A stretch of DNA of 64,000 nt from Marsupella aquatica (taxonomy: Eukaryota; Plantae; Marchantiophyta), in the NCBI GenBank assembly GCA_973895155.1, contig OZ316891.1:24365899-24429898 (forward strand). Direction: 5' to 3'. The notes below the pieces were generated by a model. It made no database searches. It worked only from the letters and a program-made list of their open reading frames with translations, and was not told the origin of the DNA. Positions 13,331 through 37,149 of the stretch are shown in pieces (position 1 is the first letter of the stretch; every line of letters begins with the position of its first letter). The translations under genes and the position numbers were made by a program.

Positions 13331-13469
13331 TGTAACCTTGGATTCCGGTTCTGTTTACCACTTTACCCGTCCCTCCTACCATGCGCGTGTGGGGTTTCTA
13401 TTGGGAAATTTCGGCAAATTTTATTCCAAGGATTTTATTTTCGAAAGGGGAACTTCCTTCCAACAAAGC

Positions 13470-13860
13470 TGCGCAACTAACTTGGAGGCAGGGAAACCTC
13501 TACTTTAACCAAATTTTGTTCCGAAGATTTTCTTTTCGACAACAACCGGCTAACTTGGCCGGCAGGGGAAACCTCTATTTCAACCAAATTTCATTCCAAA
13601 AAATTTCTTTTCAGAAAGAGCCAAATAACTTGTAGAACCGGCTAACTTGGCCGGCAGGGGAAACCTCTATTTCAACCAAATTTCATTCCAAAAAATTTCT
13701 TTTCAGAAAGAGCCAAACAACTTGTAGAACCTCTGTTTCAACCAAATTCCATTCCAAAGAGATTCTTTTCAAAAGGAGCCAAACAAATTGGAGAACAGGG
13801 GAAACCTACCTCTGTTTCAACCAAATTTCATTCCAAATATTTTCTTTTCAAAATGGAACC
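13470..13860. repeat. Degenerate tandem repeat, ~92-bp unit
   Basis: 'aaccggctaacttggccggcaggggaaacctctatttcaaccaaatttcattcc' recurs at 13544 and 13636; partial copies near 13490, 13728 and 13808. Confidence 0.85.
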
Positions 13861-15272
13861 CTGGCCTCTGGAGAGGGTACTCAATTAGTTCGTGGACCCC
13901 TTGGCTAATAAAATCAGGGGGAAGAGTCGATCTGAGCCGTCTCCATTTCTTATTTCCGGAAATCTCGTCCGTCCATCATAATGGCCAATCTATGGCTCAA
14001 AAGAAAGATCTCAAATAGATCTATGGATGGGTTCTGTCCATTTTGCAAATGGGTTAATATTTTTCAAATGAAAAATCAAACAAATCCAAGCCTTCCTAGC
14101 CGTCGATTTTGTTGATTTTACGATCTTTGCCATCCATTTTGTAATGCCTCTAGAAATCTTATTCATCCATGTTAGAAGGCGATCTAGGGTGCAAAAGAAA
14201 GATCTCAATGAGATCTACGACTGGGTATTTTTTGTTTTGAGAATGAGTAAATAGTTTTGAGTATAAAATTTGATGAACTTTCAAGATTCCAGTCATTCCT
14301 CCTCCCCGATCTTGGGTTTCTATGTGCTCTTCCCAGCATTAATGGCCGTACAATACGAGAGGTCCTTACATACCGGGAGTTGCGGTTTAAGAAGGAAGTT
14401 ATCAAGTTAGTTATTAGTCATTATTTATTATATGAAAAATACTTTTTATAAATCTTTGAATTTAAGTTTTAAAATTGGAAATGTAACTAAAACGGTTACA
14501 TAGTGACAGTTTTAACCATCTTGCTCTTTGCATTTCCAAAGTTTTTACTTTTCTTTTTACGGCACGGCGTCCCAAAATTTACACCCAAATTGACACAAAC
14601 ACGAATGAAAACTATAAATTTGATTTACAAAACCGACGAGTCTTGTTTGTTGCGGTTGTTGTTGACGTGGCACGCTGTGGTGCCAGGAATTTTGGAAGAG
14701 AACTCTAGTGGGGTCCGTAACTAGCTTACAGGGGAGGGAAAACCTCTATTTGCTATTTTGTATTTCAATTTGTTTAGCTTTATTTGGGAGTTTTCTATTG
14801 AAAAAGGAGATTTACTACTTACCAGTTATCTTAGCATTACACACTGATATGGTGCTTTTTGTGATATAGAGACTAGTATTCCATGGATCTACCTTTTGAT
14901 GGCCCGTATGGTGCCACACACCCCCCCTCACCACAGCCTGAGATTTGTCATAGACTAAACCCTTGCTGCGATTGGGTTTGACCCCCCCTACTCCTAGCCC
15001 TCACCTGTGTCTATGATGCCTAGCCCTCACCATCACATCTTGGTCCCAGGTGCCCCCTGTCGTGACATATAGTATCGTAGCCATAGTGTATCGAAAACAT
15101 ACAAGTCACCGGCAAGGCATATGTGCAAGCTGCTAGCAACCAACATACATAGAAAAAGTCCAATCACATTCACGAGTGCCAAGAAAAAGCAAATGAAGTG
15201 GTATGTACGTAGTGGAGGTGTAAACCTCTGTATCCCCCCCAGACCACAGCCAAAAGGAGGGCTGAAGAAAAT

Positions 15273-16769
15273 TCAGGTAGCACGTGGAGCACAGGAAGGG
15301 CAAAACCCTTCTGGCACCTGGGTAAGTTCAGGCAGAAGGCAGAAAAGATGGTACCCTCCATTGCAATTGTCACACAGCAGCATTTGGTCAGCATCATCAA
15401 TTCGCAAACACACTTTGCAAGGGTAGTCCACAGGTGGAATCCAGGTAGAAGTCACAATGGTGGGATCCAGGTTAGGCAGATGACAAGGGGCGCAATTCTT
15501 GGCATTGTCAGCAATTGTGCGCCCATCTGCCCCTTGTAACTCTAGCACTCCAGACGATCGAATAGCTTTAACCCTGAGAATAGTACGACTGGTAGAGGTG
15601 TCCAGGGTGTCGTTAGCTTGCCGTTGCAAGTACACAAAATCTCCCACTTCAAACTTCCTGACCTTGGGCTGAAAAGTGCCCCCTCGTGTGTGTGTGCATA
15701 ACGCAGTGTGTCCCTGTGCTGTGCGATGGCCAAATTCTCCATGGCCATGGGCACAACCCTCCTGAATAGGGCAGCCCTCTCAGAGATCACATCAGACCAA
15801 GTCACAGCTGAATCCAAGTCTACCACTTGAAGCATGTGAGCAGCAATAGCAGAAGGTGGAACTGGGTGACGACCAAACAACAAGAAGTAGGGAGAAAAGT
15901 TAGACAGTGATGCATGTCTGGACATCCTATACCCCATGGCAATGTAGGGTAAGGCCAGGTCCCAATCCTCCTTGTTTTTGGTGAGGCAAATCTTCCGGAG
16001 ACCCTTCTTGCATGTCTGAACTATGCGCTCTGCCAAGCCATCTGCCTGTGGGTGATCTCGTGATGTCTGACGATGATCAATGAGGGCCTGATCAAGCAGC
16101 TCTTGGAACTCTCCTCTAAACTCTGAGCCCTGGTCAGTGAGACATTCTACACAAGCTCCAAAGCGGCTGAGAACTTGTTGCAGGAATGCCTAGCTGGTGC
16201 TACGGGAGGTCTTATCCGGCAATGCCACAAGTTCTATCCACTTGGAGAAATGCTCTATCATGATCATGATGTAGAGATTACCCCGAGATGTGAGGGGTAA
16301 TTCTCCAGCCAAATCACATGACCAACGATAAAACATGCCCTAAATAGGGAGTGGATGAAGTGTGGGTTGCCGAGATGTGAAAGAAGTCCTTACCCTATCA
16401 CACTGCTCACACCGGGCAATAACATCTCGAACCTGGCCATGCATGCCTCTCCAATGATAATGAGGGACCAAGAGGCTGTAAGTCCTCTTAACGCCAAAAT
16501 GATCAAGCTCAGAATGTACCTTACGGATAAGGCCAACCCTCTCATGAATGGGTGGAACCACCACTTCCCTATCTGGCAAGCAGCGCACGAGATGATCTCC
16601 CTTCCACAAGTAACGCTTGGACCTTTGCTGAATTTGGTCTCTCTAGGCAGCAGTAACATGGGTGGGGTACTCCCCATGCTGCAGAACTCTCAGAGTGTCG
16701 CTGTCCTCCCATATGTCCACCATAGGTTGGTCAACAACGTAGCATGGCAGCAAAGCAAGATAGGTAGAT
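15273..16769 (-). pseudogene. Gypsy integrase (HHCC, DDE core) with C-terminal PHD finger
   Basis: 'HSELDHFG...CEQC' zinc site; core includes 'IEHFSKW', 'LTDQGSEF', 'GLAERIVQ'; PHD 'CKVC...MLLCDNCNGGYHLFCL...FCPSC' in ORF 15273..15647. Stops and a frameshift present. Confidence 0.9.
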
Positions 16770-17139
16770 GCATGTGTAAGAAACCGTCAACTTCGGACTA
16801 GACAGCAATGCGGAAACATGAGAGACACTCAATCAGACGCTACACCGGCGAGACACCCCGAGTGGAGAAAGTCCTGAAGGCTCCATAGCAAATGAGAGTA
16901 CATGTGAAGAATGAGGGAGAGAGTTCTCTCCCTCCAGCCTATACCCCCCAAGGGGGCCAAGATGAGTGGGCCTAAACAAAGCGGATCTTATCCTAATGTA
17001 ATCCAGGGTTAACTAACCCTAGTAAGGCCAAACTAAATAAACTAAGTTGGGAACTCAAGTCAATTCCTAACAATCTCCACCTTGACTCCAGTTCACACAA
17101 TGAGTCAGGTGATATACAATACGTAACTAAGTAACATAT

Positions 17140-20100
17140 CTACATAGTCTCCGGTTTGGCCCTAACATTAATAATATCCACACAATGACTAAAGCTACTG
17201 GTAGGTAAAACTTTGGTAAGCATGTCTGCCGCATTCTCCTCTGAAGCCACCTTCTCCAGAAACATCTGCTTCGTCTCAATCACCTCACGGATGAAGTGAT
17301 AACGAATATCAATGTGCTTTGTCCTGGCATGGAACACAGGGTTCTTAGCCAGATGCAAAGCACTTTGACTGTCACACAGCAGCACCGGTCTTTCAGGTGA
17401 AAGACCCAGATCACTCACCAATCTCCGTAGCCAGATCAGCTCCTTGGTTGCCTCACATGCAGCCATGTACTCAGCCTCAGTAGTAGACAACGCAACACAA
17501 GATTGAGTTGCTGACTTCCAGCTGAACAACCTCCACCCAGCATAAACACATAGCCTGTAGTAGACTTCCTGTTATCCAAGTGACCAGCATAATCTGAATC
17601 TACAAAACCTTCCAACTCTAATGTAGAGTCTGCTTTACCGTCAAATAAGATCCCACAATCTAAGGTACCTTTCAGATACCGCAAAACCCACTTCACTGCT
17701 TCCCAGTGAAGCTTACCAGGATTTGCCATAAATCTGCTCAAAATGCTAACAGCATGGGCAATGTCAGGTCTAGTGCATGTCATTGCATACATCAAACTAC
17801 CCACAACACTATCATAGGGAACATGTTTCATTGCCAATCTATCACTCTCACTAGAAGGGCAATCATTCTTTGAGAGTTTAAAGTGAGAAGCCAATGGAGT
17901 ACCAACTGGTTTTGCATTCTCCATTCCATACTTGGCAAGTACCTTCTCCAAATACTGCCTCTGAGACAACCATAATTGCCTTTGCTCCCTGTCACGATGA
18001 ATCTCCATCCCTAGTATCTTCTTGGCCTGACCCAAGTCCTTCATTGAAAACTCCTTACTCAGCATTGCTTTCAGATGGGCAACATCAGACTTATTCTCAG
18101 CCAGGATCAGCATGTCATCCACGTACAATGCCAACACAATGTAACCAAAGCGTGAGTAATTCTCCACCTCCTTCATGTAAATATAACAATCATGTTCACT
18201 TCGTGTGAACCCCTGAGATAACATGAAGGAATCAAAACGCTTATTCCACTGTCTGGGACTCTGCTTCAATCCGTATAACGAGCGCAAGAGCTTACACACC
18301 AAGTGTCTGGTCTTCTCGTGAATAAAACCTGGAGGCTAAGTCATATAAATCTCCACATCAAGCAATCCATGCAGGAAAGCAGTAATTACATCCATCTGAT
18401 CTAACTCAAGATCATAGAATGCCACAATCGCAAGTAAAACACGGATAGGGGCGAGTTTGACAACTGGTGAGAAAATCTCCGTGTAGTCCAAGCCCTCCTT
18501 TTGGGTGTATCCTTTGGCCACAAGGCGTGCCTTGTAAGTGCCATCCTGCTTCTTCTTGTACAACCATCTACACGGAACCAGTGTCTTCCCGCGAGGCATG
18601 TCAGTTAAGCGCCAAGTTGAATTCTTCTTCAAAGAATTCATCTCCTTCAACATTGCCTCCATCCACTTATCCTTCTTTGGAGAGGCCATAGCGTCTTCAT
18701 AGCTAGAGGGGTCTCCATCTTCAGTAAGCAAAACAACACCGGGATCATCTTCATGTTCAACAACTTGAACACGAGGATCTGCAAAACCAAATCTATCAGG
18801 GGGTTGGCCAAAATTGGCCCTGGTGGAGCGCCTTGGTTGAGGAACTGCACCTCTACCAGAGGGACCAACAGTTTCCTCATCACCACCAAGCTCCACCGTA
18901 GTGGGTTCCTCCACCTGTTCCTCCTGAATATCCCGAGGTCTTGACAACCATTCTTCGTCAAAAACAACATTTATGCTCACAACTGCCTTGCAATCGACAG
19001 GATCCCACAATTTATAGCCCTTCTAGGCTTAAGACTAAAGCCTAGAAAAATACATTTCTTAGACTTGGGATCCAACTTAGACCTGTGTGTCTGCTCAATG
19101 TGAACATAGGCAGCACAACCTCGGGGGGGTCACTTCCATGGAAGTGACACATCACGTGCGACGAAGTATAGGCCCATTTAAATGGGTGTGACGGAAGACT
19201 TCCAAAGTTTGGTGGAAGAACACATAGGGCATGTTTTATTGATTGGTCGACTTTAAAGAACACATAGGCCTATTTAATTGCAAAAAATACTTTCTATAAA
19301 GTTTTTAGGGGTTTTTTAATAAAAAATGACAAAATTTTAAGAAAGAAAGGGCTTTGCAAAAAAATATTTTTCACTTTAAAGTTAGGGGGGTCAAACCCTA
19401 AAACGTCGCACGCGATGTATGACCCTCCATATAGTGACCCCCCCGAGAGCACAACCAAAAACTCGGAGTCTAGAGTAATCAGTAGGTCTCTTATACCACA
19501 ACTCAAATGGAGTCTGCATCAACTTACTACTGTGCGGTGACAGATTGTAGACGTATGCAGCTTGGTTGACAGCTTCAGCCCAAAAGTTGTTGGGCAACTT
19601 GGACTTACATAGCATGTTGCGTGCTTTCTCCAGTAATGTCCGATTCAACCGTTCTGCAACTCCATTCTGTTGCGGGGTCTCCGGTATAGTGTAATGACAC
19701 TTGAGGCCAAGGTCCCGACCAAATTGATCAAACTCATTGGACTTATACTCGCCACCGTTATCGGACCGAACACACTTCAACTCCTTCCCAGTTTGTAGCT
19801 CTACCATGGCTTTCCACTCCTTGAAAATCTCAAAGACTTGAGACTTCTCCTTCATGTAGGACAACCAGCACATTCGAGAGTAATCATCTACAAACGTCAC
19901 AAAATATCTGGCTCCACCCAACGACGGCTCCGGTGCTGGACCCCAAACATCCGAATGTACATACTCAAGAATCTCATGAGAATGGTATGAACTAGAACTG
20001 AAAGTCACTCTCCTCTGCTTGCCGAAGATGCAATCTTCACAAAAAGAGAGTTTACCAGATTGAGCGCCTTGCAGCAATTCTCTGTTTGCCAAGGCTGCCA

Positions 20101-21367
20101 ATCCTTTACCACTCAAGTGCCCCAACCGTGCATGCCACAAATCTATGGCTTGTGTGCGACCAGATGTTGAGGGTGCTTCAATTGAAGCAGCCATAGATGA
20201 TTCTATAGCAGATGTTGCTGTTGCATCCGAACATTCCACCACAGAATCCACATGCTCTACTCTAGGAGCAATGACATCTCCTTCCAAGATGTACAAATTA
20301 TTCTGCCGTAGTGCCTTAATCAAAGATACATCATCTTTGACGACAAAGAGCGCACCATCACGTGCGGTGAAATGAGATCCACCAGCTTCCAAAGCACCAA
20401 GAGAAATCAAATTCTTAGAGATGTCTGGTATGTGTCTGACTCGCGTCAGTGCTCGCACAACACCATCAAACATCCGGAATTTGATAGTCCCCATGCCAAC
20501 AATTGTACATCGGACTCCATTTCCGATTTCCACAGTACCGGTACAAGGTTGGTAAGTGGAGAAATATGATTGCGTTGGACACACATGATAAGAGGAACCC
20601 AAATCCAACATCCATTTATTGTCATACACTGAATTCACAGCACCAATACATAGCACTTCAGCAGCATCCTCATTGTCAGCAATCACAATACCAGCTGATG
20701 ATGAGGACGCACCATTGGAAGCAAGACGCTTCTGCTTTGATAGAGAAGGACAATTCCACTTGGTGTGGCCCTTCTCATGGCAATGCCAACACTGAACTTT
20801 CTTACTACGGGACTTAGATTTAGATCTACTGTGTGATTTAGATCTAGACTGATTCATAGTACGCTCCGTCGATCTACCTCTAACCACTAAGGCAGCAGAG
20901 TCATTGTCACAGCCAGAAAGTTGTCGCTTGCCCCATTCTGCAAGAATGGTATCCTTTACCTCATCCAGCTTCAACGTAGACTTGTCATGTGTGATGACCG
21001 TCACCAACGTCGAATAGCTTTGAGGAAGCGACATCAACAAATGCATCGCAAGATACTCATCGGTCAACTTGTCTCCTGCCGTGGTCACCTCGTGCACAAT
21101 CTCATCAAAGAGACTGAGGTGATCACGCATGTTGCCACCATCCTTCAACTTCAACCTGAATAGCCGCTCCAAGTGATAAATGCGAGTAGTCAACGAAGTA
21201 CTCTGGTATAGCTGAGTAAGCATATCCCAAATCTTCTTGGCATTCCGATCCATCCCCAACACGTTCTTGAGAATGTTGTTTGCCAAGAACAACTCAATTG
21301 TGCTACACGCCTTCCCGTCAAACTTCTCCACCTCAAACTTTGGCGCCGCAAGCTTTCTTGAAGTCAT
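17140..21367 (-). pseudogene. Copia-B gag-pol (gag, CCHC, PR, INT, RT, RNase H), disrupted
   Basis: 'CWHCHEKGHTKWNC', 'WMLDLGSSYH', 'LWHARLGH', 'VHSDVWGP', 'RSDNGGEY', 'YVDD', 'TKHIDIRYHFIRE'; broken by a MITE, stops and frameshifts. Confidence 0.93.
19120..19447. mobile_element. MITE, 328 bp, 15-bp perfect TIR, 8-bp TSD
   Basis: Ends ctcgggggggtcact...agtgacccccccgag (imperfect to ~45 bp); AGCACAAC at 19112-19119 and 19448-19455; removal restores 'FGCAAYVH' in Copia integrase. Confidence 0.92.
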
Positions 21368-23280
21368 TGATGCTGCCACAAACACACAGGAAATACACAA
21401 CCGAAATACCTCCACCCAAAAAGTCACCAAAAAATGAAAGTTGGTGAAAGTGGAAATGGAATGCATCGCCGCGTAGCCTGCAAGGTACACTGCCAAGATC
21501 TGAAAATGATTTGGAGAAAAACTTCTCCAGCAAAAACTTATTCAACCCGGACCGGAGGGGGGTCAAAATGGCCGTTTTGACCCCCGTCGGGTATCTTAGG
21601 TCCCGAAAAAATTCTGCAATAGTTAAATGCAAATCAATTTCACAGGCCCGTGCTCAACTCCCTTGAGTATCCCCTTGCAAAGCCGTGCAAAAAAATCCTG
21701 CCTTGACAACCGCCAAATTCATAATTTTGGCCAAAATTCAGCTCTCTGGAAAAGTATCTTTTGGAGGGAATAAAAGTACAGTCAAATTCTACAGCAGAAG
21801 GCACCCGGTGATGACACGTGTCCGGCTCAAAAGAAAAACTTTGCACAAAGGAAAAGAAACGAGAAAGAAGTTTAAAAGAAAAAATAACCGGAAGGCTCAA
21901 GGCAACAATCGCCCCATTCCCCTTCTAATTTTCCTTTAAAAAAAAACTTCGTGACCCTTATGCCCTTTCGCCATGTGTCGCCCTCCACTCATACGTCGTA
22001 CTTACCAGGCTCCCCCTAGTACATACCATAAAGCTCCAACCAATCTTGGAGTACTTAAGTACTCAAGAGCTGCATTAATGCCACACCAGGTGGTACAGCA
22101 GGTAACCCCTTAAATTCCCTAAAGGAATGGAGCACATACGCTTCTTTCCCTCTCCTGGCCTTTGTACCTTGTATCCCAATTATTGCAGGAGTACCTTGTA
22201 CAGGCCTTGACCCTGGATTAAATACTCCCCAAAAAACATGGGAGCAAGTACGCTCAATGCTCTCAGTTGTACTTCGTACCTTCAACTTATGAGCCCTGTA
22301 CCTTGTACTAAGCGGTACATCAGGTACCACAAGCCATTGCCCTATTTTAAATGCCTCGTATCATCTTGCAATACAGCACTCGTACCGGGGTAACAGTCCT
22401 TTGTACCACCCTTGCCACACAAACACAGTCGTATTTGCGTGCTCCTATACGCTGTACAACACATCCGTCCGCACCGCCGCAAATGATTGCGTAGCGGTGA
22501 GTCCAACGAAAAAATACAGGGAAGAAAAATGGCTACTTTCGGCAGTACAACATCGACATTGCTCGAGTAAACGTCAACCCCACCGGCCCCACGTAAGATT
22601 AAACAGAGCACTTAACACCATAGCCAAGAGCTTAGAGCTCTAAACAGCAAAACTCAAAAATGAGATTACTCGACACACCAATGATGAAAGGAAGTGAAAC
22701 CTTCACCAAAACGGAGTGTCCGCCGATGCGCATAAGAGATTGCTAGACTGTCGTCTTGAAATGCATCAAAGAACAGAGACACATCCGACACTCCAAGCTA
22801 GAGCTCCAATCGGGAAACCGTCACCTCTTTCAAACACGAAACCTTCAACGCAAAACGACCAGTGAAACGATCACGCAACCGTCGTTGACGATTCAATCTT
22901 TCACCCCGATCCAGCACAAAAATGCTCTCACCACTGCCCAGGCCACCAAACCACGAACACGAAGCTCTGATACCACTTGTAAGAAACCGTCAGCTCCGGA
23001 CTAGACAGCAATGCGGAAACATGACAGACACTCAATCAGACGCTACACCGACAAGACACCCCGAGTGGAGAAAGTCCTGAAGGCTCCATAGCAAATGAGA
23101 GTACATGTGAAGAATGAGGGAGAGAGTTCTCTCCCTCCAGCCTATACCCCCCAAGGGGGCCAAGATGAGTGGGCCTAAACAAAGCGGATCTTATCCTAAT
23201 GTAATCCAAGGTTAACTAACCCTAGTAAGGCCAAACTAAATAAACTAAGTCGGGAACTCGAGTCAATTCCTAACAGCATG

Positions 23281-24800
23281 AAATATAGGCAGGATGGAAA
23301 CCTGGTCAAAATCCTGTCGTGCATCTGAGGAATCATCAGAGGCAATCAAAGGGCTGCGGGACATAGTGTCAGCATTTTGATGTGTCACACCAGGCCTATG
23401 AATTACCTCAAAATCATACTCCTGGAGTATGAGCGCCCAACGAGCAAGCTTGCCAATAAGCTTGTCGTTGGTCATCAACCACTTCAAGGGCTGGTGGTCG
23501 GTGTAGAGAACAAACCTGGTCCCATAGAGGTAGGGCCTGTAATGTATGATAGCCCACACAACAACAAGGCATTCACCCTCATAAGAAGAATAATGACTCT
23601 CTGCCTGATTGTTGCTCCTTGATGCAAAGGCAATGACGTACTCTTTACCTTCCTCATCATGCTGGCCCAGAATGGCACCAATCCCAAGGGCACTCCAATC
23701 TGTGTGTAACACAAAGACCTTGCTGAAATCAGGTCTTCTCAGCACCGGGTATTCTGAGAGCTTCTCCTTCAAAGTGGCAAATGCTGCCTCAGCATCTGTA
23801 TTCCATGTCCAAGTCACATTCTTTTTCAATAAAGCATACAATGGGTGTGCAATGGTACTGAAATCTTTGATGTAGATCCGGTAGTAATTGCACAACCCAA
23901 TAAAACTCCTCAAAGTGTGAACATCGGTAAGAGTGGGCATTTCCAAGATGGATACCACCTTGGCCCAGTGAGCCATGGTTCCATTTGGAAGAATGCGATG
24001 CTCAAGATATACTACTGATCTGACAACAAATTCACACTTCTTGGGGTGTATCTTTAGGTTCACCTTCTTAAGCCTCATGAATAGCTCCTCAAGGTCAAGT
24101 AGATGTTGGTCAAATCCTTTTTTGCTGTGGACCAACACATCATCAATGTAGCATTTCAGAAACTCAGCACCTTGAAGAACCTGGTCCATGACTCTTTGAA
24201 AGAATATGGGCGCATTCTTCAAGCCAAATGGCATCACCAACCACTCCCATAGTTGGTTACTACCTTGGAAAGCTATTTTCTTGCGGTCCTTTGCAAGCAG
24301 CAAAATCTGGTTAAAGCCTTGCCTTAGATCCACAAGAGTGAAGATGTCTGAGTCTCCAATGCTGTCAAATAGCTCCTCTGGCCGTGGCATGCGGTACCTG
24401 TCCTGGGGTGTGACCAGGTTTAGTGGCCTGTAGTCCCCACACGTGCGCTTCTCTGTCCACAACCCATTGGAATCCTTCTTTGCTGGCATCACTGTAGCTC
24501 GCTGCAAAATCTGATGTAGATGGCTGAATAAGACCAGCTTCATATAACTCTTGGCACCTCTCATCCACCAGCTGCCACTCATGCTTACTCAAATGGTGTC
24601 TCCGCCTGAAGATAGGTGTTTCATCAGCCAATTCAATGGAGAACTGCATAGTCTTGCACTTACCCAAGTCCTTCATAGAGAAAGCAAACACATTCTCATG
24701 CTTGAGGAGCAAATTCAGCAGCTGGTCCTTCTGTCTTTTACTCAGGTGGTTGCCCATGATGAATGTGTAGTTGGCAACACTAGGAATAGGACCTGATGTA
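23281..24800 (-). pseudogene. Gypsy reverse transcriptase + RNase H
   Basis: 'DYRPLN', 'VDLRQGFNQ', 'MPFGLKNAP', 'CYIDDVLV', 'LHTDWS', 'YSSYEGECL', 'YTDHQPL', 'NADTMSR'; frameshift near 24500. Confidence 0.95.
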
Positions 24801-25109
24801 CTCATACTTGAAGAGCCAAAAGTGCTAGCCTCTCCACTGTCCAAGCTGCTAGCATGCTGCTGATAAGGTGAGGAGGCCTCTCCAAGGCCTGTTGTACCTG
24901 CTGATTTGGGTTGGTCCACACCATGAAACTCAGAAATAATATCAGCCACATTACAAGGGACCTCCTCCCCCCAACACTTGGACTGAAGCGGTGAGTGTTG
25001 AATAGAGGTAAGTGCACCTGGTCGGGATGCCATGTAGCAGCACCATGGAGTGGTAGAGTTGGAACTCCAGATGCTGAATGAATGTACATCTGAAAAAGGA
25101 TGCAAGTGA

Positions 25110-26060
25110 CCAGAAGCCAAGTGAGAGCATTAAGATCCATTACCCTGCCAAGTAAAGCATTCCTGGCCAGCCTGGTGATCTGGGTGGGACGTGTAGTACC
25201 GAATTGGAAGCCCATAGCCCATTCTCTCTCCTCAGGACTAGGTTCATCCCAAGTACCGGTAGAATGTCGATAAACCAGACCAGGACCATCACCCTGAAAG
25301 GCATGTGCACCTGGAAAGGATACAAATGTAGGCCAAGCAGCACGGGGTTGTCCAATGGTATTGGCTGGATACCAAGGTGCTAGCTCTTGCCGTGTAACTG
25401 GTTGGCAAGAACTGTCAGGATCCAAAATCTGGTCCACTGTGAGGTTAGTGTCCCTGGATGTGTGGTGAAGAGCTAACTCCAACAAGGAAGGTGGTGCAAG
25501 GTTAGTCCAAAAGTTACGAAGACGATGTGCATAAGAACCACAGTGCACTACATCAATGAGAAGGGGTGGTCCCAAGTAGTGCTGGACCACACTGAAATCC
25601 TCTTTGACCTGTGGACGCTGGTCAAACTGAGATGGAGTATTCTCAATGATATAACCAACAGCAGGACAAAGGGATTGAGCCCAGGTGAGAATATGAACCA
25701 ATGTTGTGAAAAGGCCAGAACGAGAATCATGTAGTCCAGCACCGTGACCAGCAACTGAAAACCCTTGGCATTCCCAACCAGCTATGATCAAATCAAGGGA
25801 GCCAAGAAGAGTTAAGTGCCGGTGCTGGACAAGCTGGATATCTAGAGGAAAGAAAGAAAATGCAGACTTCCATGCACTGTGTGGAAACTACTGGGGAAAT
25901 CGCTCTGAAAATTCCAGCAGACGGGATTTAGCCACTTGCCTTGCACCTGGATCAATATCCACATAGATGTACTGCTTCACCACCATGCCAGACTGTAGGA
26001 GAGCTTCCAGGCCTGTAGAAATGCCACCAAAAATCTCAAGCAATGTAAGGCCATCTAAAG
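25110..26060 (-). pseudogene. C5 DNA-cytosine methyltransferase domain within Gypsy pol
   Basis: Motif I 'LLEIFGGIS', II 'YVDID', III 'LDI', IV 'IAGWECQGFS' (Cys codon 25768-25770), VI 'IIENT', VIII 'HRLRNFWTN', X-like 'LLGRVMD'. ORFs 25888..26604 and 24802..25791 are one frame separated by a single TAG. Confidence 0.88.
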
Positions 26061-26399
26061 GAGGAGTCCATGTAACTGGTGCGCTCAAGATTGGGGCTAT
26101 TGGTTGGCCATTGTGCTGCCCAAGATCCTCAAATTTGCACAATGCAGCCACCAAAGGTCCATGGGCTGCTTGGAGCCGTTGTACCACCTCTGGTTGATGA
26201 TCCACGTTGCTGGAAAGTGTTGCTATACGTGCAGCAGCATGTGCAGTAGCCACCTCATCATCATCTTCCTCAATCCAATCCTGCAATGGGTGGTTGACAT
26301 AGGTAGCTGTGTGCACTGCTTTCAACACACAGTGGTGAGCCATAGGTGTATGGGCACCATGCAAATCAAGTGGAATGTAGCCCAAGTGTGAGCCATCCG

Positions 26400-26760
26400 T
26401 ATGCCAATCAACTCTGTAGTATGCATGCTCATGCCAGTTGTCAATGGTAAAACCTGGTGGGAACAAAGCCGCCTGGCCAATGAGCACATCATACGTAGTG
26501 GCATTGGTAACCAAACATCTGACTGGGAAATGCAATTCCTGATCTGTACATCCATTAAAAGTGAGAGTGAGTAAAGTAGAACTCTCACCCAGCACATCCT
26601 CCACAGTGCCACTAGCAGTCCGAATGTGCCACTTGGATTGCTGAAATGATCAGTCAACAGTCCCATCTTCTTGGCAAACTGAATGCCCAATATCACTGGT
26701 TGAGCACTTGTGTCTAGCATGACCACCTGAGGAGTGTGACCCTCCAACTTGACCACTAAA
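26400..26760 (-). pseudogene. Gypsy aspartic protease
   Basis: 'VVMLDTSAQPVILG' and, after a frameshift, 'YDVLIG'. Confidence 0.8.
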
Positions 26761-27676
26761 TTCCTGTTGTCAACAATGGCAATGGTGGTGGAAACTGAAG
26801 TCCTGTCACTAGGTACCACTCTCGGCAAATGATGAGGTACCTTGTGAAGGGAGTTAGTGTCCATGGTCTTTCCACTCAACAACATAGCCAGGAAAGATGG
26901 AGCAGCATGACCAGAATCAAGTGTAGCTTTGGTCACACAATCAGCAGCAATTGGTACTGGGGCAGCCAAACCAGTGGAAACATGTAAAGGAGAAGAAGAA
27001 GGACCAATATGTACATGAGATTGGACCTCCAAAACCGGTGTCACAGGGGCTGATGAAGAATGCAGTGAACCCTCTAGCGCCCTGAGGACAGCTCTAGCAT
27101 CCAGCTGTAAATCATGGCAATTGAAAAGTGGAGTTGTAAGAATCCTTTGTGCCATACCGGAGGTGAAATGCTCAAGCAGCTCAGGAGAAACAACTCCCTG
27201 TGAAATGTCAGCAGCACCTGGTGGTGGAATGGATGTAGCTACAGCTCCCTCCCCCCTCGCCAACAAGGTGCGCTCTTTAGCAAGTGTGAGGGGCTGAAAA
27301 GATTGGGGAATGATAGCCCGAGCTCCCCTGGCTCTAGTCATAGGACCGGCAGCAAGACCATCAGCCTGTACAATGCGGCGTGTGGGAGAAATACGGGAGG
27401 CAGCACTAACCTGTTGGTAAGCAAAATACGAAGGGCAGAATGAATCTGAAAATTGGGCGGTAAGGCCAGGCTGTGGAGCAGAGGACAGCACACACTTACC
27501 CATATGAGCATCAAATGGCAAGCCATAGAAAGAGCGGGGTAGAGGTGCTGAACTGTCAGTGGTGCCTGGGCCAGGGATGGGTTGCACGTGACCAGCCGGT
27601 TGAGAAGGACCAGCAGAGGCAGTTGACTTGCCTTTGATGTTGGCAAGTTGGGCATGTAGGGACTCAACCTCATGAG

Positions 27677-29140
27677 TCAGAGACTGGAGTTGAGTTGCCT
27701 GTGCATTGTGAGCCTCCTTCTGAGCTGGTGGCTTCTGTTGTTGCTTGGGCAATTTGTTGGCACTGGTTGCTTTGCCACTAGAAGGAGGAGCAACTGATGC
27801 AATAGGAGCCCTCCTAACTGGTGGGGGAGTGGAAACAGGAGCAGGATGAGTGGCCTGTTGTCGTAGCTACTTCCTCTCGAGGAATTTGGCAAACAAACTG
27901 CCTCCAAGTGGCCCACTTTCCCGCAAAAATCACAAGACAGGTCCTCAGCAACAATATCACATTCATTAGCCTTGTGATTAGGATTGCCACAGTAGTTGCA
28001 AAATGGCAACATGAAAGCAGCATGTGTTGGTTTGGTCTTGGAAGCATACTGTGGCACACGGGAAGGGGTGGCCATTGTAGGGGCAGCAGCCTGGTACCTG
28101 GATCACGGTGGACAAGCAATACTAGCCTCATAATGTGCATGGGCCAACTCAAGTTTCTCAGCAGTGTCATAGACATTGAGCAAGGTGTAGCTGTCTCCAA
28201 ACTCTAAGAATACTTGCTGCAACACTTGCGAATGGAGAGCTAGTGTGCCCTCCAATGTGCGAAGATAGCGATGAGCAGCTTCCAGGTCAGTGATGCTCTG
28301 GGTGTCCTCCTTCAACTTGAGAAGCCGACGATACATCATCTTCAATGTTTCATCGCGCTGCCTCACAAAGGTGGCCAACTGCATAATTTTGTCAGCACTC
28401 TTGATTGGGAATTCCAATTCAAGAACCTGGAAAAACTCAGCCACTGGATCAGCAAAGGCAAGGGAATCAATGGTGGGAGAAATGCCTGATGTAGCCTGTG
28501 CCAAGACAGTGGGAGTAACTGGTGCAGTGGTGGGAACTGGAGTAGGAGGGGAAGTGGCAGGAGCAGCAGCATGGGCTACAATGGCATTCTGTAATGCCAG
28601 TTGTGAGGCAGCCGCAATTGCAGTGGCATAGGCAGGGTTAGGCAATTGTGTGATAGCAAGCAGCCGTTGAGAGTGCTGCTCATACACATCCAAAGCCTCG
28701 TGGTGCACATACCTGGCTAGTTGCTTAAATGCAAAAGCATTTGTAAAATTGTTGCCATACTTCAACTCCAATTCGTAAACGACAGTGTAGAAAGTGGATT
28801 TGAACTCACGCAAAGAAACAGTGCCTGGCCGCCCACTGAAGCGTTCAATGCGGCCAGATGAGTGGCTGGCGTCCATGCTGTATGTCGGTGAAGCAGGAAC
28901 AACCACGGATGCAGAAGGGGTAAATGGCAATGAAGTGATAGCAGGCTTTGGAGTAGTGGTGAAGTGACCGCCAAATTGAGCAAAAGGATTGCGTGGTGTG
29001 GGTGCTGCTGCTATCTGCGGATGTCGTCGAAATTGCCGAGACTCCAATGAAATTGGCACCAACAGCCGTGGATCACTCCGCAAGTGGTACCTGGGTGTTG
29101 GTGGCGATGAGCTGCTACAACTCGGCTCCTTTGCAGACAT
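27677..29140 (-). pseudogene. Gypsy gag with two CCHC zinc knuckles
   Basis: ORF 28103..29140 ('IERFSGRPG', 'FVRQRDETLKMMYRRL') then 'CNYCGNPNHKANEC' and 'CDFCGKVGHLEAVC' in ORF 27677..28075. Confidence 0.85.
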
Positions 29141-29339
29141 GCTGCATGCTCACCCGGGGTGCCAATGGGAAAGAAACTAACAAGAAAAAGGTGTGGCAAC
29201 CCCAAGGCTAGGAAATGTAACCGACAAAGGAAACAAACGATGCGAGACAGAAATATGTAGAATGTGTAAACACGGAGAAACCGTCATCGGAGGAAAAGGA
29301 CCCTTAAAACCACCAAATTTTCCCTTGTCGCACTTACCT

Positions 29340-30760
29340 ATGTGTATACATAGGCGAAGCAAAGAATAAGGGAAAATGGGCCCCTAGAACGTGAAAGGAG
29401 GGCCCCCTTTAAGTGTATACCTCGGGCCCCTTGTGGACCCAGAAACTGGCAGCAAAGGTATGCAAAAGTAGGTGGGACGGTCGTCGCACGGCAAAGGAGC
29501 AAGAAGGCCAAAAACTAAAAGAAAAGGGCCCCAATTAAGTGTATACACCTGGGGGCAGGATGTCGGCAGAAAAATGGTCGTAGTGGGGACCGGCCGCGGT
29601 GCCCTATGCACATGCCCTCATGTGAGGCAAAAGACTCTGCAATTGTCGCGCAGCAGACGAGCGTCCATGGAGGAACAGAAAAAGAAATAGAAGAAAAATG
29701 GCTTTGGCAAGGGCGAAAGAAAAAGACGAGACCCAAGGCGAGGCGAGGAAAAAGAAAAATGGGCCTTGAAGTGCTTGAGCCCTGCATAGGGCTTTGGGCA
29801 CCCTCCCCCTCCTCTAATGTTCCATAGGGCCTCGTGCCCTTGTGCTTGCCCCTGACAAAAGCACTCCCGTGTGAGGGAGTTCAAATTGCACTCCCCTGAG
29901 TCCCCTCCCCTGGTTTAATGCTACCTAGGGCCTCGTGCCTGGCAAGATTGTGACTCCCGAGAGGAGGGAGTTGAATGTACTCCCTCTCTCCCCCTCTTTT
30001 AATTCCTAATAGGGCTTTGTGCCCTCCTTTGGCTTCCCCATCCCCTCTGTGGCTGGTGCTCGGCTCCCCCTCCCTCCTCTTTAATGCTGAAATGGGGCCT
30101 GGCAGAGTGGCAGAAGGACTCTAGGGAAAGGAGTCAAATGTAACCCCCCCGTCTTTAATCCTCCATAGGGCCTCGTGCCCTCTCCTTGCGCTTCTCCCCC
30201 TCCCCCTGCTTTAATTGCTTGCTGACAGCTGACTCCACGAAAAGGAAAAGAATCGGGCGAGAGCAGAAGGAAGCGGCGCGCGGCCCTATGCGCCCTGCGC
30301 AACGTTAAGGAAGGAGGCCATAAAGGACCCCCTAGAAAACGCAAACCTCCCCCCTCCGATGTGTATTAGCGGAAGAGAACGGGCGCTCGAAGAGCGCAAG
30401 GCAGGATAAAATGCGAAAGAAAGAGCCGAAGCACGGCCGAGGGAGGAAACAGGGCGCACGATGGCCGTGGCCGAGAAATGGCCATAAAAACCAATGAAAA
30501 AGGGGCCCCAAACTCCCAAACGGTTGTTAAAAACACGAGCAAGGGCGTTGTGCAGACTATGAAGCGCTGGGGGTCGTGCAGCAGCAGTCGGCAGCACGTC
30601 ACGGCCAGAAAGTACCAAAACTGGCCAAAAAAGTCATGACAGTCGGCAGCAATCGCAGCAGCAGCAATTGTGGAAGCAGATTGAGTTGCGGCCGACAAGA
30701 AAAATCCGGGCCCCTTGTTACATGTATACACTTAAGTATACACATAACACCACAATAAAC
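29340..30760. repeat. CpG-rich 5' leader of the Gypsy element with internal sub-repeats
   Basis: 'tagggcctcgtgcc'-type unit near 29826, 29926, 30010, 30166; 'gggcccc..gtgtatac'-type unit near 29400, 29526, 30707. Confidence 0.7.
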
Positions 30761-32638
30761 CCATAACTTTTAACTCGTCACTCCGATGTCCGTCAAAGAA
30801 ATTGCAATGGCTTCACCAGAAATTGTTGAAATCGTCACGAGCAATCTTCTTCCCTTCACCGCTAACTCGAGAGTTCTTCTTGAATAAAAGGAGTAAGAGA
30901 AACAATCGTACTGAAATCGAATCAAAAACCGGCAGGATGCCAAGATCAGCCGGGAGCATCTAACGAATCACTGTGTGAATCCCGTGTACGGAACCGACGA
31001 GCACTGTCTGAGCTCTATCAACAGCGATTCAAGAAGAACTGAAAACCCGAAAGAAAGACATGCCCTAAGCAAGCAAAGTCCTGGCGTCACAGTAACAAGC
31101 ACATTTGCTTCAAGAACGGCCCAGACTTGCTACAAGAACATGTCGCTAACTCAGGTAGTACACTAGCCCTAACTACATACCTAACGGGCAGGCGAGGGAC
31201 ATGCCAATGTGCATAAGAGGCACTGTCCCTCGGCATGACACCCCTCCTCCTATGTCTTGGAGTCATGAATGAGGGTTATGAGGCCACAGTACGGGAGGAG
31301 GGGGTCAAACTGAATGTGGGCGAGGGTGAGTCTATAACAAATCATTGCATGTTAAATCTATGTCAAGTTCATGTGTTTCATACAACAAACCAAAAACCAA
31401 TACACTATATTTATGATCTACAAACCAATTGATTTGAAATACATGTCTTGATTTATGTTCTGGTTGTATGGCTAACGTAAATTTAATGCGTGGTCAACAG
31501 ATCTGAGCCATCAATGAGTGGGCACATGTCGAAGTGTAAGCCATTTAAATCACAAAAATTTACCCAAGTGGTATCCATGGTACATTACTCAATATTTTTG
31601 AGAAAATGGCATATTAGTCAATAACGTTAGTTTCTGTGGTAACCTTAGTAAATCTAAGATAGAAAGGAAAAACAAGAATTTTCTTGAACAAGTTTGCCAC
31701 CTTTTTTGCTCTTTCTGACCCTAGTAGTCAAATCAAAAGCTACTCCTCAAATCTTGAAGTTTTGATAGTGGACATTACAGGTTTAAGTCACCCTTCTCCC
31801 AATCTTTTTGGACTCAACGTCTGGCTCTACTTTGACCCCACACTAAAAAAAACACTGCTAGCTGGGAGGGGGCCTAATGTTCTAATGACTTGTAGGAATG
31901 CATTTTAGCATAGGGGGAGGGCAAGCTGTATGAATGGGCCCACAGTGTTTGAAAGAGTGGTTTGCTATTACTTTAGGTTGACTCCCATCCTTGAATTTGC
32001 TTTTACATGCTGCAAGTCCCCGGCCCCTGCACTGTTTGATCCTGAAACCTGTCTATTCCAATATCATGGACTCATGGGGTCACCCTAGCAGAGTACTTCT
32101 GCCTCTCTGAAGGCTCCTTTCTGTTTTTGAAGTGAAGTCCAATAGTAGGATGTCTCAGTCCATATGGTGTGCATCTAAGGAGGGTAGCCCCGATGGGGAC
32201 TATTGAACTGTATAGAGTCAAAAACCTAGCAGCATATTGAAAGCTACTCTTTGGGGCTGGTCGTCTCGAGTGAAGCCTCTAATATACAGCAAACTTGGGG
32301 GTGTAACTGAACTTGACAATGCTAGTGGGTAACAGAGATTTGGGGCAAGATTAATCTCTAGCTGAGCATGGCTAGTGTAGAGATAGACAATCACTGACCC
32401 CGTATTTTTTAAGAAAACAAAGGAACAATCCATTTAAATGCAATTATGGAGATCCAGCTGGGCTCGTCACAGCAGAAGCTAGGCCACCAAGGAGCAGCTT
32501 TCTATTTTTGGCCAAGCAGCAGCAAGTTATGGCCAACGTATTATTTATGGTTATCATGATATGGTACCATATAGATCATATGATACCATATCATGATAAG
32601 GTCTGTTTTATTTTCAAATTTAGTAGTCATGATATGTC

Positions 32639-34438
32639 TGTGGGGAGAAATCAGATCAGGAAAAACACTCCAAACATACACGTGCTCAATAGTTACATGG
32701 TTCGCCTCAAAGTTGGTTACGTCCACGGGAAGACCAAGCTTTATTAACGGTTATGTGTCTACTCAAGCATCACCATAGCTCTCATCTCTTCAAGCTCTCA
32801 TCTCTTGCTGTATCACTATGTTCTCTCTTTTTAGAACTCGCTTGTGTGTTCTCACACCACATACAAGTTGAAGAGATAAGGATCAATCTCTTCAACTAGG
32901 GTTAACACTCTAACCCTAGTTAACATACTAACCATAGTTCAACCCAAGACTGAGTTAACCTCTACAAACTCCCCCTTGACTCACGTCTTGGGAGGGTTCA
33001 TAACATTGTCTTTTCCTTACAAGTTCCTCCGCAGGAAGTTCAAGACAGTAGGGCCAAAAGACCCTCCCCCTAATGCAAGGGTTAACTAGAACTAAGCCGT
33101 AGCCGATAAGCCATCGAATGGAGTACTCATATAGAGACATTTTCTTGGTTAACTCTATATTTACAATATTTGTAAATAATTACAATGCCTTGAAAAACTA
33201 TTGGAGTCTAATACTTTGGTAAAAGCATCCGCTGGATTAAGCTTTCCATCAATCTTGACAAGCTCAAATTCATCATCCGATAATGCCTGTCGGATGAAAT
33301 GATAGCGGACATCAATGTGCTTTACCCTGCCATCCATCACCTGATTCTTGGCAGTGTAAATTGCACTTTGACTGTCACAATGAAGATATGCACACTCTTG
33401 TGATAAACCCATCTCCGTGACAAGCTTTTTCAACCAAATGGTCTCTGATGCTGCTTCTGCTGCTGCTACATACTCGGCATCCATAGTAGACTTTGCAACA
33501 CACTTTTGGAGAGTAGACTTCCAACTAATGCATCCACCAACAAGTGTAAATACATATCCAGTTGTCGATCTCCTCTTATCTAGATCACCTGCGTAGTCTG
33601 CATCCACATAACCTTGAAGCACTTTCATATTGTTTGAACTTGCATCAAACAATAAACCCTTCTTAGTGGAACCTCTGATGTAGCGCAAAATCCATTTCAC
33701 TACTTTCCAATGAACTTTTTCTGGATTTGCCATGTATCTGCTTACCTTGCTAACGGCATAACCTATGTCTGGTCGGGTGCATACCATGAGATACATTAAA
33801 CTACCCACAATACTTTTGTAAAGAACTTTGGACATCAAACTTTTTTCTGTCGTATTTGATGGACAAAATGTTGCAGAAATATTGAAATGCCTTGCCAAAG
33901 GAACACTCACAGCCTTAGCATCTGCCATGTTGAATTTTGAGAGTACCTTCTCTACATATCTTTTCTGCGTCAGCCAAAGTTTGGCTTTGTTAACATCCCT
34001 GACAATCTCCATGCCTAGGATCCTCTTGGCTGTGCCCAAATCCTTCATCTTAAACTCAGAACTGAGTTGGGCCTTAAGCTTATCAACTTCGCCCCTATCA
34101 TGTGCTACAATGAACATGTCATCCACATAAAGTACAAGGATGACAAGCTTAAAACCTGTGTTGTTCACACGTCCGATGTAAACACATGGATCGTACACGC
34201 TTTGCACAAATCCAAGCGATTTCAAAAATTCATCAAAACGCTTGTTCCACTGCCTTGGGCTCTGCTTTAATCCATACAAGGATTTTAGCAACCTGCATAC
34301 CAAATTTTCCTTGCCCTTTTGCACAAAACCCTCTGGTTGTCTCATGTAAATCACCTCATCCAACGATCCATATAAGAATGTCGTGACAACATCCATTTGA
34401 TCTAAAACCAAATCAAATAAAACTACAAGAGCACATAG
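32639..34438 (-). mobile_element. Copia-C 3' half (RT C-terminal part, RNase H, PPT, 3' LTR 32639-32966)
   Basis: ORF 33161..34462 'LCALVVLFDLVLDQMDV...YVDD...KHIDVRYHFIR'; PPT 32967-32980; the 328-bp LTR is the reverse complement of 49363-49690. Confidence 0.95.
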
Positions 34439-37149
34439 TGGGTAGTGGGGCGTGCTGGGCACATATCACCTCCACCTCCAGGTAAAACCCAACAGAGCAG
34501 TGGGTATGGAACAACAACTGTTGGTGTAGGTGGTCACACTGTTGTGTATGGAGCTGCACCACATGGTGGGCACATCCCACCCTCCTTTGCAAGTAGAGCA
34601 ACAACACATACCCATAGCACAAGTCAGGTTAGAGCAACCCCACGCAGCAAGGGGTACACTATGGTGTATGGAGCACCACCAACACATAGTGCACCCTCTC
34701 AGGGGAGAGCAACCCCACAAGTGGATGGGTATGGACCACCACCACCTGTTGGGCACACTATTGTGTATGTTACGGGTCCACCACCAGCACACATTACACG
34801 GGGCCAAGGTAGACCAACACAACATACTGAGCAGTATGGAGCAACAAGAGACAATTGGAGATGTGAGTAGGGATTGCCCTTCAATTTTGGCATTTATGTA
34901 AATTACTTTGGAAATAAAGGGTATGCTAGTGTGATGTTAAAGACCTAATGAAAGTGCTTAATTATGTGACTACAGATTCTGCCCATCCTGATTGGGGAGT
35001 AACTGACAAGGAGGTTTACTATGAACCTGAAGTAGAGGCAGGACAAGGGACAACTGTAGCCTATGGTTCTGAGCAATGGCCAGAGCCTGATTGGTTGGCT
35101 GGTGGGGAAGATGTACAGGTAGTTGAGCCTGCCTCTTATCCACAGAGTGTCGCCAAAGCATCTGGTAAGTTACACTTATGAAACAATAAACAATTGCAAT
35201 TGGTATCCACTATTTGACATATACAAAGGTATTGATGTTACTATTGTATGATATCACATGGATGTGGGATGATGCAGGGGGCATTATAAGTCCACTAAAG
35301 GGTAGTACAAAAGTTCCAGCGAATCCTAAACCTGTCACACCAAGCAGTACCACAGAAAGCAATGTAGGACCTGATAGAACCAAGAAAGGAGTAGTGGAGA
35401 TTGGGAGCAACCGTTGGGTGAACAGTGCATCTGCAGGGAAGAATCGTTGGTTGGCTGACTTGAAAGGTGAAATATTGCGATGGCTGGATTTGAGTGTGGT
35501 GAATTTTGTGCAGCAGCATCCAGCGGATTGGCAACAAGTTGTTGACAATGTAGCCGCAAAATGGAAATATGTAGGCCATCCGGATGGAGTAGCCATGGAG
35601 TGTCTTCAGGCTCATGCAAAGACAATTCTGAAGAATGAGAGGTGGAGATTGCACGTGTTGTTTCAAGAAGGTGGAGAGGACCAAAGAATGCCTGCTCCCC
35701 CATTGACAGATCCTCTTCAATGGAGCAAGCTAGTCCATCACTTCTTGAGTGAATCCGGCAAGAGTAAGAGTTCCCAGATGGCATATGCACGTGGCAACGT
35801 TCAGAACCTTAACTTGGCAGGAAGGAAAGGGAATGCTCCAATAGTAGAGCAGCTGGTAAGAATAATCGTTGGATTGGCAGACCTAGCTTCTACAGTGTAT
35901 TTGAGTTTTTTTGTGTCCGAGCAAATAATGTGTGAAAATATGTTGTATGCAGAAGGCACAAAATGGACAGTCCCCTACAAAAGAAGAGGTGAGAGCTGAA
36001 GCAAGAAAACATAAGCAGAAATCTGGCCAGAGTGATCCTTCAAACCAAGTGAGTACTCATACCAGATAATGTTTTTTTCGCTCCACATTCCATAGTTTGC
36101 ATGAACAATGGGACCATATATTATTTTTCAGGTGTAATGGATTGACTCTGTTGGACATATGTGTTTGCAGGGAGGTGGATCATGTTCTCTTAGCAATTTA
36201 TCAGATCGTGTGAAATGTATGGAGTCTCATGAGAATGATGTGACCGTGAAATTGAGTGAAATGGCAAGTGAGTTGACTGCTTTAAAGGAAGATGTTCATA
36301 AGCTTATTCGTGTGCAAGAAGACCAATACAAATGTATAATGAATGCAATATGGAATGGAGGTTCTAGAGACCTGCCACATTACTCCAATTTGATGAATCC
36401 AGAGGGTAACATTGAACAGCAAATGGAGGTGGAGTCCACAGAAAGGGATGTGGAGGGTACCATGGCCCCAGCAATGGAAGGTAAGGTTTCTCATATGTTT
36501 CCATGATTGGAGATGAGACAAAAAATGTGTTTTGTTATATGTTTCCATGATTGGAGATAAGGTTGATGGGGTGTTGACTTGCTATTTTGTTATTGCAGAG
36601 GTTACCAATGTACTGAATACCCCCAGTTTGGATCCATATGAAGAGTTCATAGAAGTTGCCAAAGCCTGTGAGAATGGATGCAAAATAGAGGGCCAGGTGG
36701 AGACCCAAATTCCATCACAGGCAGGTGACATACATGGTGTGACCACAGACGGTGGAGTAGAAGTAGAGCTTTCAGCTGCTGGGAGACCTATTCGGAAGGT
36801 AAAGAGTCGGGCCAGGGCAAGTGGTAGAGTGGCAGCGGCAAACAAGCGTAAAGCTGATGCAGAATTGAAGACTCAGGCACATCCTGAGTATGTATTGTTC
36901 TCACCACAGCAAAATGAGTTGTGTGTAGGGTATGGAAAATTGCGCCCAGAGCAAATTACATTCCATTGCAAAGAAGTACCAACAGGGTATTCTGTAGTGT
37001 TGTTGACAAAGCTTGTGAAGCCAAAGACCCCTTTGCCAGTTCCTAATTTGAATGATGACCCGCCACAGACAACTATTGCAGATGCTTTGAACTCTTTGGT
37101 GTTGTGGCCAACAGAATACATAGGGACACCTGAAATGTGTGGTTTGTAG
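34439..37149 (+). pseudogene. 3' part of CACTA second gene (TnpA-like), multi-exon, displaced by inversion
   Basis: G/H/T/P-rich exon 34445-34870, 'LKNERWRLH...QWSKLVHHF...SSQMAYARG' (Ptta/En-Spm-like), coiled-coil exon, C-terminal 'GYSVVLLTKLVKPKTPLPVPN...LVLWP'; followed by CACTA subterminal repeats. Confidence 0.65.

Follow-up and report, generated by a model that had tools for sequence, protein, structure and literature searches.

DNA methylation normally silences transposons. Two kinds of retrotransposon that themselves carry a DNMT3-related methyltransferase domain, SymbioDIRS-Dnmt3 of Symbiodinium and KnitGypsy-Dnmt3 of Klebsormidium nitens, were described in a paper of 2018 that left the role of the element-borne enzyme unresolved (PMC5890265). 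In yeast the SymbioDIRS-Dnmt3 domains carried out de novo CG methylation, and the KnitGypsy-Dnmt3 domain produced no methylation, a result regarded as inconclusive by its authors (PMC5890265). A further paper mentions such elements as reported "in streptophytes", citing the 2018 work, and its tree may include land-plant rows (PMC12344493).

The locus described here lies in a stretch of 64,000 nucleotides of Marsupella aquatica DNA, which was analysed as a whole and is called the window in the following. An earlier note, made from the sequence, had proposed that this DNA holds a retrotransposon-borne C5 DNA methyltransferase inside a Gypsy-type polyprotein, and sequence matches as well as fold matches bear this out. 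Judged by sequence and modelled structure, the domain is a C5 methyltransferase of the DNMT3 type, with DNMT3A/B as the closest solved enzymes in both respects. The features of the element and of the domain are listed in the direction of transcription; the numbering of the C5-methyltransferase motifs was anchored on an alignment with DNMT3A and is taken by us to apply to the window domain.

15058..31240, minus strand: whole Gypsy-type element of the form A-coding-B, about 9.7 kb once the nested Copia element is subtracted; ends TGTCATG...CACGACA, 4-bp target-site duplication GGGG
30884..31240, minus strand: terminal repeat A, 5' copy, by alignment to repeat A of the related locus L003; inner end from contigs joining B to A
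28103..28876, minus strand: gag, capsid region, from the list of open reading frames; 68% identical to residues 1-326 of relative P0004; in-frame stop at 28105-28103
27900..28102, minus strand: CCHC zinc knuckles (nucleocapsid); PF00098 E 0.004, below the cut-off, and conserved in related loci
26330..26860, minus strand: aspartic protease with a frameshift near 26645-26690; E 0.093 on its first half, relative P0442 passing PF13975
25090..26067, minus strand: DNMT3-type C5 cytosine methyltransferase domain, 326 codons, assigned from Pfam, sequence matches, motifs and the fold modelled for L003, whose domain is 71% identical
26037-26023, minus strand: motif I, EIFGG
25971-25951, minus strand: motif II, YVDID
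25842-25834, minus strand: motif III, DIQ
25794-25759, minus strand: motif IV, DLIIAGWECQ
25770-25768, minus strand: codon of the catalytic Cys
25656-25639, minus strand: motif VI, GYIIEN
25539-25501, minus strand: motif VIII, AHRLRNFW
25236-25207, minus strand: motif IX
25173-25132, minus strand: motif X, LLGRVMD
23490..24796, minus strand: reverse transcriptase (RT; YIDD) and RNase H; PF00078 E 4e-25, PF17917 E 9e-37; frameshifts near 24965 and 24490
16775..23275, minus strand: nested, unrelated Copia element that separates RNase H from integrase; its LTRs are 97% alike and it is flanked by a 5-bp duplication, GCATG
15680..16774, minus strand: integrase with H2C2 zinc finger and rve core, interrupted by three in-frame stops and a frameshift near 15685
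15276..15420, minus strand: PHD finger at the C-terminus of the integrase; PF00628 E 1.3e-8, above the cut-off
15234..15240, minus strand: G7 run immediately before repeat B, resembling a polypurine tract, a role assigned from its position; a purine run occupies the same place in 10/10 loci inspected
15058..15233, minus strand: terminal repeat B, boundaries from loose contig ends

The domains of the element follow each other in the order gag, zinc knuckles, protease, methyltransferase, RT, RNase H, integrase (of the DDE type) and PHD finger; by Pfam no chromodomain was found, the C-terminal reader being the PHD finger. With five frameshifts, stops in gag and the methyltransferase, three more in the integrase, and the nested Copia insertion, the copy in the window is dead, an inert fossil. 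The 3' end of the element at 15058 is confirmed by mixed loose ends in contigs from three runs. Repeat A of the window aligned to repeat A of L003 with a score of 108.5 (maximum of 200 shuffles, 81), and repeat B resembled its L003 counterpart at the termini only, with a score of 58.5 that lies under the shuffle maximum of 69. Neither ordinary paired LTRs of the element nor any tRNA genes were found in the window.

The minus-strand frame -2 at 26649-24802 in the list of open reading frames encompasses the C-terminal half of the protease, a linker of about 87 codons and the methyltransferase, and contains exactly one stop, the TAG at 25890-25888 inside the methyltransferase domain, just as had been noted earlier. 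The ordered series of motifs I, II, III, IV, VI, VIII and X in frame with the protease C-terminus was likewise recovered and could be extended by motif IX; the domain does lie at the proposed 25110..26060, but reaches from about 26067 to about 25090. It had also been placed directly before RT, which is correct insofar as it lies upstream, but in this copy about 100 linker codons and the two frameshifts near 24965 and 24490 intervene, unlike in L003 and P0437, where methyltransferase through RT are read in one frame. The catalytic Cys, the Glu of the EN motif and the RxR pair are all present with the motifs in order and without the rearrangement of the DRM type. With an X at the stop, the domain exceeded the PF00145 cut-off of 22 bits, scoring 27.6 (E 2.5e-6) over a short stretch, so that the profile check suggested by the earlier note was passed. 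Among sequences of solved structures, human DNMT3A was the best match (E 2e-6), followed by DNMT3B, M.HhaI (0.012) and 4onq (0.48); the identity of the window domain to host DNMT3 enzymes is about 25%.

The structure was modelled from the stop-free domain of L003, which is 71% identical to that of the window and stands in for it, by using an alignment of 17 rows; the mean pLDDT was 92.4, and a single-sequence fold with a pLDDT of 33.6 was discarded. A Foldseek search with the L003 model placed DNMT3A/B on top (E 6e-20). In a second comparison, which covers only the 1000 best chains from Foldseek, DNMT3A/B again ranked best with a Z-score of 29.4 and an rmsd of 2.6 over 272 residues, followed by 4dkj (M.MpeI-type; 25.7) and M.HhaI (25.1). 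Of the solved C5 enzymes, DNMT3 thus comes nearest to the predicted fold.

Conservation was assessed in 133 new representatives (50%-identity clusters) among the matches listed. The catalytic Cys and the Glu of motif VI are present in 133/133 of these and each Arg of motif VIII in 132/133; among 167 earlier hits, Cys was kept in 106/107 that cover the site. Immediately ahead of the catalytic Cys, 77/133 have Glu and 46/133 Pro. The window copy has Glu instead of Pro at this position, and the earlier observation that GWECQ retains the catalytic Cys stands, but GWECQ is no oddity of this copy, being the family's majority form. A decay mutation as its origin was ruled out, since Glu before Cys is the majority form among relatives. 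The scan of metagenomes, in which 358/412 candidate stretches were confirmed and 80 loci returned, used a search pattern that demanded GW[EP]CQ, and the occurrence of GWECQ in 80/80 loci is therefore no evidence.

Between the window and 11 of these 80 loci, pN in the domain was 0.17-0.21 and pS 0.69-0.71, giving ratios of 0.09-0.13 that are rough because pS is near saturation. The same comparison gave similar values for gag (0.11-0.18) and protease (0.08-0.12) and tighter ones for RT (0.04-0.07 where defined). For L003 against the other loci, in a set that includes repeat assemblies of the same insertion, the median ratio was 0.33 for the domain (79 loci), 0.28 for RT (60 loci), 0.35 for integrase (38) and 0.39 for gag (46). 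Neutral evolution, named in the earlier note as an outcome that would speak against its proposal, was not what was observed: the ratio of about 0.1, albeit rough, indicates purifying selection, under which the methyltransferase domain of the family is placed by these sequence comparisons. Stops occur inside the domain in 79/80 loci. Contig pieces matching the element numbered in the thousands and came from four runs. Depths of 981-1686 were reached in run X3 by pieces that differ at 1-6 positions in 169-331 bases, one of them, at 1207, lying inside the domain; a contig of the same run without differences over the 3' junction had a depth of 21, and near-identical pieces reached 45-80 times the flank depth. 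These data suggest a young subfamily of many copies that retains the domain, although contig depth is no copy count.

Relatives and multi-copy contigs carry the domain, contrary to the possibility raised beforehand that it is present only in this copy, and the suggested persistence of the lineage in land plants is supported by its presence in Calypogeia, Sphagnum and Marchantia. The nearest named relatives and the neighbouring elements point to a bryophyte as the probable host. The relative in Calypogeia fissa is 78% identical over the domain and 71% over 561 residues, those in Sphagnum compactum, S. magellanicum and S. balticum, which are partial, 57-61%, and that in Marchantia polymorpha, where two gene models combine the domain with RT, 41%. 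Further named relatives stem from Closterium, Haematococcus, Monoraphidium and a Chrzof1 model, which we take to be Chromochloris. No vascular-plant or Physcomitrella names appeared among the matches listed, most of which carry no species name. The profile search counted 642 clusters with an E-value of 1e-30 or below, the best 150 of which were examined. L003 is flanked by a gene of the PPR-DYW type, which is a land-plant trait. Every locus of the 80-locus set that is of sufficient length has the same domain order. Monoraphidium and many more proteins (chlorophyte-type elements) follow a second order, RT-RNase H-methyltransferase-integrase, and most relatives share the integrase PHD finger with the window. 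The search for intact copies, as proposed earlier, led to family members with open frames: 847 aa including RT in L003, 1471 aa from methyltransferase to PHD finger in P0437, 2811 aa in P0440, and a single open frame from gag to the start of RT in P0442 of Calypogeia. Public databases attribute P0473, also a member of this eukaryotic family, to an uncultured cyanobacterium, probably through a binning error.

A quick IQ-TREE analysis of 70 hand-picked sequences out of 127 RT-RNase H sequences, with whatever the search had returned as outgroups, separated 22 other elements from 48 rows by a branch of 0.34 with an SH-aLRT support of 100. The 48 include the window, three Klebsormidium RTs and every row with a methyltransferase. 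Elements of the second domain order form one subclade of 14 with a support of 100, and land-plant rows fall into two subclades, with Calypogeia in both. FastTree recovered the same long stem with all 127 rows, its support labels being unreliable after rerooting. In a tree of the methyltransferase domain (43 rows, all of element-borne domains) Calypogeia is nearest to the window, and the two domain orders separate (99) save for one long-branch row. The predicted proteins of the Klebsormidium RTs in the clade contained no methyltransferase, and for this reason these trees make it only likely that the window family belongs to the same lineage as the published Klebsormidium element. Just outside the clade, the RT-integrase-PHD protein P0250 carries PF05869, an adenine methyltransferase family, and is in this respect like the DAM-LTRs.

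The ends of the element set it apart from canonical LTR elements. Instead of an ordinary direct LTR pair with a tRNA primer site, which was not found, the family has split repeats A and B: of 23 loci with gag and PHD finger, eight showed the arrangement A-coding-B-A-B, six more a 3' B-A-B, four A-coding-B, and five were incomplete. In 15 contigs of run X1 and 8 of run X2, the sequence adjoining the start of B is the end of A, and the full A-coding-B-A-B form hence exists in the window's own family. Twelve loci with both ends displayed an exact 4-bp target duplication in ten cases (L070 and L073 being one insertion), three of four matching bases in one and no match in one. Two letters separate the CA of B from the TG of A at the internal B/A junction in 10/10 loci inspected, and a TGG primer-site start right after A is absent in the window and in 7/7 loci shown. 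The element is of the Gypsy type by its genes and is not a canonical LTR element; its ends may be rebuilt from the internal B/A junction and not through the strand transfer usual for LTRs. At positions 14480-14500 of L003, and in nine other loci, the CA-NN-TG junction resembles joined unprocessed cDNA ends, and a G-run precedes B and not A. Two other groups of elements were rejected as assignments: Troyka elements have CG...CG ends and 3-bp duplications and occur in animals only according to PMC12440569, whereas the ends here are TG...CA with 4 bp; DIRS, PAT and Ngaro elements use a tyrosine recombinase, whereas this element has an rve integrase.

Elsewhere in the window, on the minus strand, a CACTA transposase region (Transposase_21, DUF4218, DUF4216) extends over 54370-61427, and a two-BRCT ORF (59183-60100) and an NSD-like PHD-finger ORF (60642-61427) on the same strand may be cargo of this transposon. 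Four Copia elements are found at 16775-23275, 33161-34465, 40503-46532 and 50691-53654, two of them with paired LTRs 94-98% alike, and a 337-nt inverted pair (32639-32975 and 49354-49690) resembles LTRs of one family in opposite orientation. Tandem units of 75-95 nt at 13400-13860 and 14600-14720, together with a second high-copy repeat end near 14663-14720 that has mixed flanks in contigs, possibly represent a non-autonomous DNA transposon. Long ORFs at 883-6063 had no Pfam matches; one contains a CxCxxF..CKH pattern, which is SWIM-like and suggests a DNA transposon. The one clear host gene of the window is a multi-exon gene at about 9000-11750 on the minus strand, presumably for a histidine phosphotransfer protein (AHP-type, cytokinin signalling) by its motifs; its one translated exon had no Pfam match, and Atlas gave only a weak Hpt lead, with taxonomic leads no finer than Eukaryota or Streptophyta.

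The CpG observed/expected ratio of the element is 0.24-0.34, compared with 0.45-0.52 in the four Copias of the window, and no CHG depletion was found in the element. NCG codons account for 18/630 codons in the element versus 88/783 in the four neighbouring Copias (p 8e-10), and for 0/88 in the domain. In 40 of 309 difference rows there were 28 transitions with A/T in the window, 17 in CHG, 6 in CHH and 5 in CG context; since only 5/28 of these listed private transitions are in CG context, the loss of CG predates the window insertion. The CACTA transposon of the window is equally CG-poor (NCG 9/188; junction ratio 0.13 versus 0.14 for the element), and the junction ratio of L003, 0.35, is on par with the 0.30 of the Copias, so that host methylation alone can explain the depletion. 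A search for same-host Copia controls for the L loci gave no matches. The ambiguous CG footprint fits self-methylation without proving it.

With confidence only slightly better than even, we propose that live copies use the enzyme to methylate their own freshly reverse-transcribed DNA, probably at CG sites. A virus-like particle would enclose the polyprotein together with RT and integrase, and because of this joint packaging the enzyme would reach the cDNA ahead of integration. Guided by the PHD finger, insertion would then take place at a histone-marked site, where the pre-methylated insert might resemble host chromatin or restrain its own expression, and the lineage would be that of the Klebsormidium KnitGypsy-Dnmt3, old in green plants. 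In favour of this reading stand the selection on the catalytic residues, the DNMT3-like predicted fold, the frames shared with RT in open relatives, the low NCG content and the CG activity of the related SymbioDIRS-Dnmt3 domains. Against it stand the negative yeast result for KnitGypsy-Dnmt3, the Glu before the catalytic Cys, the equally CG-poor CACTA and the stops in 79/80 loci. An enzyme that is active after integration or in trans, methylating the target site, sister copies or host DNA together with the PHD-bearing integrase, would profit from the same conserved residues and agrees with the PHD finger at the end of the integrase and with the position beside the integrase, not before RT, in chlorophyte-type elements. 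We regard it as unlikely: the authors of PMC5890265, in the peer-review file, favour cis action since the domain shares its ORF with RT, and the Klebsormidium methylome is described in the paper itself as not unusual.

It is also improbable that the fold was kept for another substrate or context (RNA, a DNA/RNA hybrid, non-CG sites) or merely for binding or shielding the cDNA, a reading that has on its side the non-canonical GWECQ, in which Glu instead of Pro before Cys could alter activity or substrate, the inactivity of the Klebsormidium domain on yeast DNA and a CG depletion that is not specific to the element. The three catalytic motifs are nearly invariant, which a role in binding alone would not need, and the predicted fold is closest to DNMT3 among solved C5 enzymes. 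Far less credible still is an explanation by a domain carried along neutrally, by the one-time capture of a host gene, or by a fusion that arose as an artefact of assembly. The copies in the window and in 79/80 loci are broken, and many RT relatives lack a methyltransferase in the predicted protein; however, the domain holds the same position in every sufficiently long locus, has a dN/dS like that of the core genes, recurs in liverworts, mosses, Closterium and chlorophytes, and is as deep as RT in the contigs of run X3. Conserved catalytic residues and dN/dS have largely refuted this explanation. Methylation of the element's own cDNA stays our preferred reading. A more far-reaching picture is tentative and rather doubtful as a whole: a separate and ancient lineage of integrase-bearing retroelements of green plants, from chlorophytes to liverworts and mosses, described in the literature searched for Klebsormidium only, with an active CG methyltransferase that has the non-canonical GWEC catalytic loop and occupies either of two positions, a PHD reader, recent expansion in some bryophytes and ends rebuilt from the B/A junction (CA-NN-TG).

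The spread across green plants suggests a capture older than the single Klebsormidium event described. With Marchantia and other bryophytes, the question of the enzyme's role would move to plants with genetics and methylome data. Such ORFs also inflate DNMT counts in bryophyte genomes, which is relevant to annotators. The earlier note was right on the domain but did not mention that the copy is dead, nor the split repeats at its ends, the PHD finger on the integrase or the alternative domain order of algal relatives.

Human DNMT3A/B and the moss PpDNMT3b (PMC6453930), as host enzymes, have in common with the window domain the catalytic fold, AHR.R.FW.NL and the C-terminal LLGR; unlike them, the element-borne domain has GWECQ for GSPCN, no introns and no PWWP or ADD, and is part of a polyprotein. 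EpiLTRs and DAM-LTRs (10.64898/2026.05.21.726589) are similar in that a DNA methyltransferase and a chromatin reader occur together in an LTR element, but their cytosine enzyme is presented in that source as sister to DNMT4 and distinct from the streptophyte Gypsy-DNMT3, and they carry a chromodomain and an adenine methyltransferase, whereas the reader of the element here is a PHD finger, and no adenine enzyme was found in it. SymbioDIRS-Dnmt3 shares a DNMT3-type domain in an RT-bearing ORF, the A-coding-B-A-B arrangement and two domain orders, but has a tyrosine recombinase and demonstrated CG activity, as opposed to the DDE integrase, 4-bp duplications and predicted activity here (PMC5890265). 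Closest is KnitGypsy-Dnmt3, for which PMC5890265 describes an intronless DNMT3-related domain in a Gypsy-type Pol ORF, DIRS-like split repeats with Gypsy domains, and purifying selection, all as found here; three K. nitens RTs, in predicted proteins that lack a methyltransferase, moreover share the RT clade of the window (SH-aLRT 100). The main text of that paper mentions no PHD finger, Marchantia or Physcomitrella. Unlike KnitGypsy-Dnmt3 as described, the present family occurs in Calypogeia, Marchantia and Sphagnum, and its chlorophyte-type elements hold the domain between RNase H and integrase; no description of the lineage in land plants or chlorophytes was found in the literature searched, subscription journals and Repbase being outside its scope. 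On the sequence comparisons as a whole, the family most likely belongs to the lineage of KnitGypsy-Dnmt3, with a range that is wider than described and extends into land plants.
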